The position numbers and the translations under genes are program-made. The notes under the pieces were generated by a model that worked only from the letters and a program-made list of their open reading frames with translations, did no database searches and was not told the origin of the DNA. DNA of 64,000 bases from Escherichia coli. Lineage in GTDB: Bacteria; Pseudomonadota; Gammaproteobacteria; Enterobacterales; Enterobacteriaceae. Each line of letters starts with the position of its first letter. Position 1 is the stretch's first letter. Location: the NCBI RefSeq assembly GCF_036507355.1, contig NZ_AP027877.1. The stretch is one strand, 5' to 3'. Shown here piece after piece: positions 12,818 to 16,019 of the stretch.

Positions 12818-14998
12818 ATGCTGCGATGGATTCGCTATATAACGCTAATCGTTATTTCTGGTGCTGCTTATGCGGCACCGGAGATAAATATTAAGCAAAG
12901 CGAATCTTCATTACCTGATCTGGCAAGCGAAACGGCTCAACAAGAGGAACAAAGTAACAAAGGCAAATCTTTCAAGGAACGTGGTGCCAATTACGTTACC
13001 GAGTCCGCCCATCAGGGCTTTGAGAACCTGACTCCAGAAGCTCTTGAATCCCAGGCGAGAAGCTATCTGCAAGGGCAAATCACATCATCTGCACAGTCTT
13101 ATATTGAAGGTGCGCTTTCTCCTTATGGTAAAGTTCGCTCTAACCTTTCCATCGGTCAGGGTGGCGATCTGGACGGCAGTTCGATCGACTATTTTGTTCC
13201 CTGGTATGACAATCAGAGCACAGTCTATTTCAGTCAGTTTTCTGCGCAACGAAAAGAAGAACGCACGATAGGTAATATAGGTTTAGGTGTAAGACATAAT
13301 TTTGATAAATGGCTTCTGGGGGGGAATATATTTTATGATTATGATTTCACCCGCGGACATCGCCGTTTAGGCTTAGGAACAGAAGCCTGGACGGATTATT
13401 TAAAATTTTCTGGTAACTATTATCATCCGCTTTCAGAGTGGAAAGATTCAAAAGATTTTGATTTCTATTTAGAACGACCCGCACGTGGCTGGGATGTCCG
13501 GGCGGAAGCCTGGCTACCTTCTTATCCTCAGCTGGGGAGCAAAATTGTTTTCGAGCAATATTATGGTGACGAAGTGGCGCTCATCGGCACCGATAATTTA
13601 GAAAAAGATCCCTATGCAGTGACGCTTGGCGTGAACTATCAACCCGTTCCGTTACTGACGGTCGGGACGGATTATAAAGCAGGTACCGGAGATAACAGTG
13701 ATCTTAGCGTTAACGCCACGATTAACTATCAGTTCGGTGTTCCGCTAAAAGATCAACTGAATAGCGATAACGTCAAAGCAGCTCACTCGCTGATGGGCAG
13801 CCGCCATGACTTTGTTGAGCGCAATAATTTTATTGTTCTGGAATATAAAGAAAAAGATCCTCTCGACGTTACGTTGTGGCTGAAGGCTGACGCCACCAAT
13901 GAACACCCGGATTGTGTCATCAAGGACACCCCCGAAGCTGCGGTAGGGCTGGAAAAATGTAAGTGGACAATCAATGCGCTAATCAACCATCACTATAAGA
14001 TTGTCGTCGCCTCGTGGCAGGCGAAAAACAACGCTGCGCGTACGCTGGTGATGCCGGTTATCAAAGAAAATACCATCACGGAAGGGTACAACAACCACTG
14101 GAATCTGGTGCTGCCAGCCTGGCAGTACAGCTCTGATCCCGCCGAACAGGAAAAACTCAATACCTGGCGCGTGCGTCTGGCGCTGGAAGATGAAAAAGGC
14201 AACCGGCAAAACTCCGGCGTGGTGGAAATCACCGTTCAGCAGGATCGCAAAATTGAACTGATCGTCAACAACATTGCGGATGTGCCGGATGAAAACAATC
14301 ACAGTCATGAAGCCAGCGCTCAGGCGGATGGCGTCGATGGCGTGGTGATGGAGCTCGATGTTACCGATAGCTTTGGTGATGACACCGACCGTAACGGTAA
14401 TGCGCTGCCAGAAAATGGCCTGAGTCCGCAGCTTTACGATGCTCAGGATAAAAAAGTCACCCTCACCAATAAAGCCTGCTCGACCGATAACCCGTGCGTC
14501 TTTATCGCGAAGCAAGATAAAGAGAAAGGAACCGTCACCCTCTCCAGTACTTTGCCCGGCACCTTCCGCTGGAAAGCAAAGGCCGCGCCGTATGACGATA
14601 GTAACTATGTCGATGTGACTTTCCTCGGGGCGGGGGGCAATGACGTTAATGCCTTTATCTACCGTGTATCTGCGACTAAACCTGTCAACCTTATTGATAA
14701 CGACAAAGAACATTTGCCGGTGGATAACGCCTACCGTTTTGTCTTATGGCGTGATGCCAACAAAGATGGCGTTTTCCAGCAGTCGGAAAAACTGACGGAA
14801 GAAGAAATGGCGCAATACGACTACCAGTGGGAATTTACCGGACACAGCGTCAATGGCTACACCGGTGCGCAATCGAATACCAGTAATGAAGATATTGTCA
14901 TCCCTGCCACTAACGAGGAAGCGGTACAGAAATTTGGTGCCCAAAAAGAGGATGGCGTGCAGGGGTATGGATTACGTGTGGTTTACAGCAAGCACTAG
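12818..14998 (+). CDS. sinH: intimin/invasin-family inverse autotransporter adhesin (SinH-like)
   Basis: 726 aa; signal peptide (cleavage near AYA/AP); segment SIGQGGDLDGSSIDYFVPWYDN...TINYQFGVP reads as the intimin/invasin beta-barrel translocator; Ig-like passenger; position between yfgJ and xseA matches the Salmonella CS54 sinH locus as I recall it. Confidence 0.65.
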   Translation: MLRWIRYITLIVISGAAYAAPEINIKQSESSLPDLASETAQQEEQSNKGKSFKERGANYVTESAHQGFENLTPEALESQARSYLQGQITSSAQSYIEGALSPYGKVRSNLSIGQGGDLDGSSIDYFVPWYDNQSTVYFSQFSAQRKEERTIGNIGLGVRHNFDKWLLGGNIFYDYDFTRGHRRLGLGTEAWTDYLKFSGNYYHPLSEWKDSKDFDFYLERPARGWDVRAEAWLPSYPQLGSKIVFEQYYGDEVALIGTDNLEKDPYAVTLGVNYQPVPLLTVGTDYKAGTGDNSDLSVNATINYQFGVPLKDQLNSDNVKAAHSLMGSRHDFVERNNFIVLEYKEKDPLDVTLWLKADATNEHPDCVIKDTPEAAVGLEKCKWTINALINHHYKIVVASWQAKNNAARTLVMPVIKENTITEGYNNHWNLVLPAWQYSSDPAEQEKLNTWRVRLALEDEKGNRQNSGVVEITVQQDRKIELIVNNIADVPDENNHSHEASAQADGVDGVVMELDVTDSFGDDTDRNGNALPENGLSPQLYDAQDKKVTLTNKACSTDNPCVFIAKQDKEKGTVTLSSTLPGTFRWKAKAAPYDDSNYVDVTFLGAGGNDVNAFIYRVSATKPVNLIDNDKEHLPVDNAYRFVLWRDANKDGVFQQSEKLTEEEMAQYDYQWEFTGHSVNGYTGAQSNTSNEDIVIPATNEEAVQKFGAQKEDGVQGYGLRVVYSKH

Positions 14999-15053
14999 AT
15001 CGGCGTAATGGCCGATCGGCCAGCCGCTGGAAATTAATCAAGGAGAGAGTTGA

Positions 15054-16019
15054 ATGAAACACTATTTAAAGCGACCGATGACTAAAGTCGTGCTGGCGCT
15101 GGCTTTAGCGGGATACTGCGCAGTGCCTGCTGCTATGGCAGAAGGGCAGGGCAACCTTAGGGCGGGTCAGTGGCAATCAGAGACAGAAACTACCGGAACG
15201 ATTCAGGGTACAGTGCCGTGGATCACTCGTAGCGCGACGGAAATCACCGATGCTGATAAATCTCATGTGTCCATTACCGTTGATCGTGGCGGACGTTCTG
15301 CTTCAACCGATGGCGAGAAGCAATTTCATATTGGTGACAAGTTAACTGCAAACTGGGCCATTGGCGATACCCAGGGCGACCTTGACGACAACAACACTGC
15401 AACCAAAGCGACGCTGCAATGGATGAGCTATAGCGACCAGGCGGGGGGTGATCCGAAAGAGATCGGTACAACGGGCAGTGACACCTATACCATTGCCGCA
15501 GCGGATGCCGATCGCTACATCGGTTTGAAAATTACCCCGACCACCACGACCGGTGATCCTAACGTTGCAGAACAACTGATCCTGTTAGACCTCTCCACCA
15601 ACGCGGGCGGTGGTTCTGACAGCGATGATATTCCGGAAGGTCCGGTATTTGACGATGCGGTTAAAGTTGTCATTCATGAGCAGGGTGTTAACACCAACCT
15701 GCTGGGCAAAGAAACCAAACTCAAAACCAATACCACTTATCAGGTCATGCTGTGGAAAGATAAAAACAGCAACGGCTCCTACGACACTGGCGAAGAGGTT
15801 ACCAGCCAGTACAACTACCGCTGGCGCTTTACCGGTACCAGTCTGCAACTGCGTACCAACGGCGGGATTGTCAACCCGAGCTACAACAACAGCGACCTGG
15901 TTATCCCAGTTACCAACGCCGAAGCGAAAACTGCGTTCGACTACAGCGAAGGTGGCCTCACCCTTGGCGCGGATGGTGTTCAGGGCTACGGTTTGTCCAT
16001 CGATTACCAGAGAAAATAA
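15054..16019 (+). CDS. sinI: secreted protein, SinI-like, sharing C-terminal module with the upstream adhesin
   Basis: 321 aa; RBS AAGGAG 8 nt upstream; signal peptide ...AVPAAMA/EG; C-terminal ~90 aa homologous to C-terminus of the 726-aa protein. Confidence 0.5.
   Translation: MKHYLKRPMTKVVLALALAGYCAVPAAMAEGQGNLRAGQWQSETETTGTIQGTVPWITRSATEITDADKSHVSITVDRGGRSASTDGEKQFHIGDKLTANWAIGDTQGDLDDNNTATKATLQWMSYSDQAGGDPKEIGTTGSDTYTIAAADADRYIGLKITPTTTTGDPNVAEQLILLDLSTNAGGGSDSDDIPEGPVFDDAVKVVIHEQGVNTNLLGKETKLKTNTTYQVMLWKDKNSNGSYDTGEEVTSQYNYRWRFTGTSLQLRTNGGIVNPSYNNSDLVIPVTNAEAKTAFDYSEGGLTLGADGVQGYGLSIDYQRK

Follow-up and report, generated by a model that had tools for sequence, protein, structure and literature searches.

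A C-terminal module shared by the inverse autotransporter SinH and the adjacently encoded protein SinI in Escherichia coli

The pairing of SinH and SinI, the subject of this study, addresses a wider question, the export of co-encoded proteins by inverse autotransporters. SinH, ZirT, Aec1 and Yfr4 have been proposed as two-partner translocators for proteins encoded downstream, Rat-like adhesins included, and export of both ZirS and ZirU by ZirT has been reported although the ZirT barrel should be plugged, a problem termed a 'Gordian knot' (PMC4943183). The similarity of SinH and SinI is described in a passage of the same work (Heinz 2016), which cites Kingsley 2003, and for IatB, the E. coli orthologue of SinH, an analogy to SinH/ZirT-type partners was drawn by Goh 2019 (PMC6714894). 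A segment of SinH named SinH-3, or Ig-like domain 3 (amino acids (aa) 602-724), is a protective vaccine antigen (Xing 2023, PMC9937491, where SinI is unmentioned). The pair analyzed here lies at positions 12,818-16,019 of a window of 64,000 nucleotides (nt), the whole stretch of DNA under analysis, from Escherichia coli (assembly GCF_036507355.1, contig NZ_AP027877.1).

The two genes of the window are the same as those described for SinH and SinI of the Salmonella CS54 island and for IatB and its downstream gene in E. coli, the first as an equivalog and the second as a family member. SinH scores 1476.6 bits against the cutoff of 999 of the NCBIfam equivalog inverse_SinH (NF033423), with residues 1-726 on profile positions 1-730, and SinI scores 420.6 bits against the cutoff of 165 of NF040711 (partner_SinI), with residues 7-318 on profile positions 2-299. 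The first-pass annotation of this DNA had taken their paralogy for uncharacterised; both the paralogy and the partner hypothesis are already in the literature (Heinz 2016, PMC4943183; Goh 2019, PMC6714894), and the NCBI family carries the name 'autotransporter-associated'. What is added here is the delimitation of a single module, a candidate calcium loop, a restricted distribution, a conserved pairing, and a lineage-wise clustering of the two copies.

The C-terminal module of SinH and SinI

The C-terminal modules of SinH and SinI are almost certainly homologous. BLASTP aligns SinH 623-725 with SinI 214-320 in one significant segment (38% identity, 54% positives, E=4e-16), and the Smith-Waterman score of the pair is 169, compared with 29.8 +/- 5.3 for 1000 shuffles (maximum 58; z=26). 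A comparison of the SinI family (alignment of 25 sequences) with the SinH family (15 sequences) in hhalign returns a single match, between SinI 185-321 and SinH 592-726, with a probability of 99.7% and E=2.9e-26. Each protein also matches the NCBIfam model of the other: SinH 611-723 on partner_SinI (3.5e-22) and SinI 212-321 on inverse_SinH (1.8e-19). Over 10 modules, 27 columns are invariant. Between SinI 31-205 and the remaining SinH passenger nothing is detectable (z=-0.3; no second hhalign match). The shared module is one discrete domain of ~118 aa, and SinH and SinI have no other detectable kinship.

Both open reading frames (ORFs) of the first-pass annotation, 12818-14998 and 15054-16019 on the plus strand, are present as claimed, and the motif-for-motif likeness that it saw in their C-termini is far above chance and clearly better than shuffled sequences. 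Its extent needs correction: the module spans ~118 aa (SinH ~609-726, SinI ~201-321) instead of ~90, and the start placed at 14735 falls ~30 codons inside the module, which begins at nt 14642. The position ascribed to it, the distal tip, is right, since the module forms the extreme C-terminus of SinH and is outermost by the established topology of intimin and invasin, in which the C-terminal end of the passenger is farthest from the cell.

The AlphaFold2 (AF2) model of the SinH module, built on a 41-sequence module alignment, has a mean predicted local distance difference test (pLDDT) score of 89.2 and a predicted template modelling (pTM) score of 0.81, and contains six predicted beta-strands and two short helices. 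In the model of full-length SinI, the pLDDT of the module is ~80-90. As modeled, the module folds as a beta-sandwich that includes two short helices and a loop of EF-hand-like type. This loop is common to both copies, with the consensus DxNx(D/N)Gx(Y/F)xxxE. Over the 41 modules, position 1 is D in 40/41, position 3 is N or D in 37/41, position 5 is N, D or S in 38/41, position 6 is G, N or D in 36/41, position 8 is Y, F or W in 35/41, and position 12 is E or D in 38/41. In the case of SinH and SinI themselves, oxygen-bearing side chains are found at positions 1, 3, 5 and 12 and glycine at position 6, as in EF-hand and DxDxDG loops. By these residues the loop reads as EF-hand-like, and it probably binds calcium. 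With respect to Pfam, the 41-member module alignment gives weak DUF5057 matches only (best 4e-5; 5/41 members), and no Big or Invasin family is found in SinH, SinI, or any of the 41 aligned modules.

Distribution, pairing and evolution of the two copies

An exhaustive search of 1.84 billion representatives with the module profile gave 89 matches. Those of full length are restricted to SinH-type autotransporters (~730-750 aa) and SinI-type proteins (~280-400 aa), with the module C-terminal in both, or to their fragments. Large repeat proteins match the profile at the loop region only (roughly profile positions 11-99); P0220, which is one such protein, is made up of SpaA domains and weak SdrD_B domains. 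A word-indexed homologue search with the module found fragments only. Foldseek against AFDB50 yields 37 matches at E<=1e-3, which are named SinH/intimin-like or SinI-like, or are unnamed or oddly annotated with SinI-like length; E. coli Aec3 is among them, and the genera represented include Escherichia, Salmonella, Citrobacter, Hafnia, Yersinia, Budvicia, Hamiltonella, Regiella, Fukatsuia and Zophobihabitans. The module is therefore a sequence family confined to the SinH/SinI system and not a generic Ig/FN3 family; the thought that it might be a ubiquitous immunoglobulin or fibronectin fold does not hold at the family level, where the full-length matches are SinH-type and SinI-type proteins.

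Among the AFDB50 matches, several SinI-length proteins from Hafnia, Yersinia, Regiella, Fukatsuia and Zophobihabitans bear the label 'ornithine carbamoyltransferase', which is probably a propagated annotation error.

The gene neighbourhood was compared over the window, an annotated E. coli relative (L001), 17 genome loci and three metagenomic loci; no Salmonella locus was among those returned by the search for related loci. The window and L001-L019 provide 20 clear loci, each with a SinH-type autotransporter that ends in the module and, after it, one or two SinI-type genes likewise encoding it. In L021, a frameshifted autotransporter with a weak module match (domain E=1.4e-4) precedes two tandem SinI-like genes, and in L020 the motifs are recognizable by eye in an upstream partial ORF, with no match to the module hidden Markov model (HMM). 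Thus, every inverse autotransporter located 5' of a SinI-like gene ends in the module, clearly at 20 loci, weakly at one, and by eye at one. The arrangement seen in the window, with sinI directly 3' of the sinH-type gene on the same strand (here with a 55-nt gap), recurs in L001-L021, and the copies of SinH and SinI are kept together across Enterobacterales and Orbales.

The exception is L022 (CP050253), where the SinI-like protein P0236 (357 aa, 8001-9074) has no inverse autotransporter within 8 kb. Its gene sits between slyX and an EamA-family gene in a genome of 2.6 Mb. An uncharacterised protein of Zophobihabitans entericus, equal in length to P0236, is found among the AFDB50 matches.

A third gene is present in L002 (4782-5885), L018 (1758-2864) and L019 (9382-10470). 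Its product combines a SinI-type N-domain (E=4e-18 to SinI) with Big_2 and an intimin-like, C-type-lectin-like C-terminus, an arrangement that amounts to a tip of the intimin/invasin type carried by an exported protein of its own. The N-domain of SinI may accordingly be described as a candidate reusable carrier, fused to different cargo in the third genes.

The relationship between the two copies differs between lineages. In the Escherichia/Citrobacter/Superficieibacter/Leminorella group, SinH modules and SinI modules fall into separate clades, with 32-42% identity between the two of a locus. For the Lelliottia/Buttiauxella/L002 group, identity between the copies of one locus is 46-51% and these copies group with each other, while the SinH modules of this group are 28-39% identical to the SinH module of the window. 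A four-point test on group mean distances, which is insensitive to rate differences if distances are additive, supports a lineage-wise topology in 294 of the 300 bootstraps over columns and a type-wise one in 5. In L020 and L021, which are very divergent, the copy of the autotransporter again lies marginally nearest to its own partner. The grouping of the copies by lineage, not by protein, suggests concerted evolution or repeated duplication. The origin of the module by domain duplication or shuffling, as first proposed for this DNA, is likewise supported by the sequences: the N-terminal parts that precede the module in SinH and in SinI are unrelated, and the N-domain of SinI is found with other cargo elsewhere.

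SinI and the sinH-sinI locus

The AF2 model of SinI comprises a low-confidence segment (residues 1-36, pLDDT <50), a folded N-domain (~40-168), a disordered linker (170-198) and the C-terminal module. SinI has no IAT_beta or any other Pfam domain. Residues 65-213 weakly match the ZirU_fam model (E=1.3e-5, 25.4 bits, compared with a curated cutoff of 100), and relatives match it with 3e-5 and 5e-4. Neither SinI, the passenger of SinH nor the profile of the SinI family gave a useful match in PDB sequence searches, in which no ZirS or ZirU chain was hit; nothing significant came from Foldseek when the full model of SinI, with its two domains, was compared with the PDB (best E=0.023), and in PHROGs neither SinI nor the module had a match. 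The earlier description of SinI as secreted stands as far as the Sec-type signal peptide is concerned, which is seen by inspection, whereas release past the periplasm can only be presumed.

In the h-region of the signal peptide, the sequence AGYC (residues 19-22, nt 15108-15119) is conserved to a degree unusual for a signal peptide: in 27 homologues A19, G20 and C22 do not vary and Y21 is nearly invariant, and AGY is retained in distant members of the SinI family. An interpretation of SinI as a lipoprotein on account of this motif was rejected, since tyrosine at position -1 does not suit a lipobox.

The coordinates of the features are collected in Table 1. The pair forms a sinH-sinI operon in an E. 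coli island between der/yfgJ and xseA; der and a small zinc-ribbon gene lie upstream of sinH, and xseA lies downstream of sinI on the opposite strand. Annotated E. coli chromosomes match the DNA over sinH and sinI at 99.5% identity, and the flanks of the island (der/yfgJ ... ratA ... xseA) agree with the annotated E. coli relative NZ_OZ282453. According to a review (PMC12525524), sinH and sinI are co-transcribed, and a scan of the plus strand found no terminator-like site in the spacer or elsewhere within 14737-15536.

Table 1. Features of the sinH-sinI region, in coordinates of the 64,000-nt window.
Feature	Position	Strand	Basis or remark
sinH	12818..14998	+	726 aa, intimin-like inverse autotransporter; signal peptide end by inspection (cleavage SGAAYA|AP)
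SinH beta-barrel, residues 65-337	13010..13828	+	Pfam IAT_beta PF11924, E=1.2e-104
SinH C-terminal module, residues ~609-726	14642..14995	+	module HMM, E=5e-59 at 609-726
EF-hand-like 12-residue loop of SinH, DANKDGVFQQSE, residues 646-657	14753..14788	+	module column counts
sinH-sinI spacer, 55 nt	14999..15053	+	AAGGAG 8 nt ahead of the sinI ATG
sinI	15054..16019	+	321 aa, SinI family autotransporter-associated protein
SinI Sec signal peptide (predicted), residues 1-29, ...PAAMA|EGQ	15054..15140	+	inspection
SinI N-terminal 'partner' domain (~35-168) and Gly/Asp-rich linker (~170-198, ...NAGGGSDSDDIPEGPV)	15156..15653	+	AF2 segments
SinI C-terminal module, residues ~201-321	15654..16016	+	module HMM, E=4e-47 at 201-321
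EF-hand-like loop of SinI, DKNSNGSYDTGE, residues 236-247	15759..15794	+	alignment columns equal to those of the SinH loop
RatA-like giant adhesin, 3' remnant, 460-aa ORF	16191..17573	+	matches NF011844 positions 2242-2683

A perfect 12-nt palindrome, GGCCGATCGGCC, is located in the spacer at 15010-15021; it is not followed by a T-run and was not flagged by the terminator scan. The segment 12500-12999, upstream of and across the start of sinH, is AT-rich (GC content 0.35, compared with ~0.50-0.55 in the flanks), which is compatible with a horizontally acquired promoter, possibly silenced by H-NS.

The RatA remnant downstream of sinI is part of the island and unrelated to the shared module (z=0.1-0.3 in the comparison of the two). 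In comparison with NZ_OZ282453, 5,153 bp are deleted with the junction at 16246-16248: 61 bp upstream of the gene and, of its 6,420 bp, the initial ~5.1 kb. The remaining 460-aa ORF begins at a fortuitous TTG and is without the native N-terminus and signal peptide. It matches DUF823/DUF824 repeat adhesin models and contains an internal repeat, (V)(V/L)TSP..x..(A)(N/H)FWGHM..T, at residues ~38-58 and ~318-340, around a Big-like stretch.

The N-terminus of mature SinI, NLRAGQWQSETETTGTIQGTVP (residues 33-56, nt 15150-15221), resembles a motif of RatA-like adhesins, ALK(G/S)G(Q/T)WQ..T(D/G)AINGT.P, which is found right after the signal peptide in 14/14 ORFs (16011-16190 in L001, and in L004-L016). 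In the HMM comparison, domain E-values range from 4e-7 to 0.34 among 794 ORFs, with the position constant. The short motif may be a common recognition element for SinH. Beyond this motif, homology at the level of the whole domain between the SinI N-domain and the RatA N-terminus is not supported, as hhalign gave a probability of 19% and an alignment at a different position.

Functional interpretation and comparison with known systems

We propose, with only slightly better than even confidence, that SinI is a Sec-exported partner of SinH, in which the N-domain is the carrier, the C-domain is an unanchored copy of the tip, and the two tip copies are functionally coupled. SinI would be exported by the Sec pathway and then associate with SinH or be released through it, as ZirS and ZirU with ZirT. 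The N-domain would act as a ZirU-like association or carrier domain, joined to the tip domain by the flexible Gly/Asp linker. In this way SinI would present a second copy of the tip domain without a membrane anchor, the SinH copy being the membrane-distal tip of the displayed passenger, and the two copies could be coupled by a common ligand or by docking to each other. Since they are retained together and show apparent concerted evolution, they are probably functionally coupled.

Several observations weigh against this proposal. The strict PROSITE pattern PS00018 requires one of L, I, V, M or C at position 8 and a hydrophobic residue at position 13, and neither loop satisfies it, with F in SinH and Y in SinI at the former and K and E, respectively, at the latter; the loop is not a canonical EF-hand, and it is interrupted in a few SinI variants. 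Coupled evolution is opposed by the clean separation of SinH and SinI clades within the Escherichia/Citrobacter/Leminorella group and by the window DNA, in which no gene-conversion tract between the copies is found (the sole repeat is 29 nt at 76% identity). The lineage-wise result itself rests on 121 columns, on distance methods and on two divergent lineage groups. With respect to partnership, the ZirU match of SinI is far below the cutoff (25 compared with 100 bits) and no solved chain matches, the SinI-like gene of L022 is an orphan, and for biofilm formation IatB does not need the downstream gene (PMC6714894). The departure of SinI from the periplasm, its association with SinH or dependence on it, its exposure at the surface or secretion, the binding of calcium and any ligand are inferred.

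Of the roles suggested by the first-pass annotation, decoy, competitor or co-receptor, none is favoured over the others by the present comparisons. A soluble tip copy could act as a decoy or competitor, by competing with SinH for a host ligand and so modulating adhesion, or by absorbing antibodies directed against the tip. We consider this improbable, and it is better regarded as one form of the partner model than as a genuine alternative. It agrees with a SinI that has a signal peptide and neither membrane anchor nor beta-barrel, with the conserved motifs and loop in both copies, and with the SinH copy being the protective, antibody-accessible antigen SinH-3 (PMC9937491); ZirTS is moreover called an antivirulence modulator in the title of PMC2270342. 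On the other hand, release of SinI is assumed, and the copies are only 35-42% identical in Escherichia-like lineages, which makes shared epitopes or ligand specificity uncertain.

The module could instead be an evolutionary leftover of a tandem partial duplication, with the two proteins now independent and without a functional link. The ~38% identity of the copies without a recent conversion tract, the unrelated remaining parts of SinH and SinI, and the existence of an orphan SinI-like gene (L022) are as expected from such a history. It is nevertheless quite unlikely, as the pairing is kept in every autotransporter-linked locus compared, from Escherichia to distant metagenomic relatives, and as lineage-wise clustering is unexpected of independently drifting paralogues; the SinI-like and intimin-like AFDB50 matches of Hamiltonella also have consecutive accessions and may be encoded next to each other.

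Somewhat less probable still is a periplasmic assembly factor, that is, a SinI which serves as chaperone or placeholder by pairing with the unexported C-terminal domain of SinH, the last part to cross the membrane in hairpin-type secretion. Strict co-occurrence and lineage-wise similarity would be expected of mutually binding domains, and proteins of the immunoglobulin superfamily fold have been discussed as periplasmic chaperones and substrate-binding modules (PMC4943183). An assembly factor is, however, difficult to reconcile with the biofilm made by IatB in the absence of the downstream gene (PMC6714894), with a SinI-like gene that can lack an adjacent autotransporter (L022), and with the fusion of the N-domain to lectin-like adhesive cargo in related loci, which points to an extracellular role of the family. 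A chance or compositional likeness of two beta-rich proteins is refuted by the alignment statistics (z=26, BLASTP E=4e-16, hhalign E=2.9e-26) and the 27 invariant columns in 10 modules, and is of practically no weight.

The partner model, with SinI exported by Sec and coupled to SinH through the tip copies, can be extended, tentatively and at rather low confidence, to a modular two-partner adhesion system. An N-terminal motif, L(K/R)xG(Q/T)WQ-x5-T(G/D)xIxGTxP, would target SinI and RatA-like adhesins to SinH, and the duplicated, calcium-dependent tip would dock SinI onto the SinH tip or bind the same ligand, either of which would account for the homogenisation of the copies within lineages. 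Antibodies raised against the SinH-3 vaccine antigen might then meet the paralogous domain of SinI, as a second target or as a decoy. SinH and SinI are a widespread and medically relevant example of an autotransporter with a co-encoded protein, as SinH is prevalent in E. coli of the extraintestinal pathogenic group (ExPEC), and SinH-3 protects mice. A domain that is discrete, probably calcium-binding, confined to the system, paired, and seemingly in concerted evolution makes specific experiments feasible.

In comparison with the descriptions of SinH and SinI of the CS54 island, the homology is here confined to one C-terminal module of ~118 aa, and the N-domain of SinI has no detectable relative in SinH. 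In the window, ratA is cut to a 3' remnant. The arrangement of an outer-membrane beta-barrel gene beside one or more exported substrates resembles type Vb two-partner secretion (FhaC/FHA), and SinH and ZirT have been modeled in this way (PMC4943183). Unlike in type Vb, the barrel of SinH is of the IAT_beta family, not Omp85/POTRA, there is no two-partner secretion (TPS) domain, and the short N-terminal motif of SinI and RatA-like proteins is a candidate recognition element. The prealbumin-like (CnaB-type) repeats of SdrD_B and SpaA are similar to the module as beta-sandwich adhesin domains with an embedded DxNxDG-type loop, and it is at the loop that they match the profile.

In organization the pair resembles ZirT/ZirS/ZirU of Salmonella, where an inverse autotransporter is followed by small, Sec-exported, barrel-less proteins that share a passenger domain (ZirTSU as described in PMC4943183). 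SinI has the same properties, namely a Sec signal peptide by inspection, no beta-barrel, and a domain in common with the SinH passenger (the C-terminal module), and its N-domain weakly matches the ZirU family model. It differs from ZirTSU in that the SinH/SinI module is a distinct sequence family, and secretion of SinI by means of SinH is proposed by analogy. With intimin and invasin, SinH shares the placement of a domain, in their case the receptor-binding one, at the C-terminus of an inverse autotransporter, distal to the membrane. The distal part of intimin and invasin consists of an Ig-like domain and a C-type-lectin-like tip, and C-termini of this type, together with Big_2, are carried by the third genes of the related loci.

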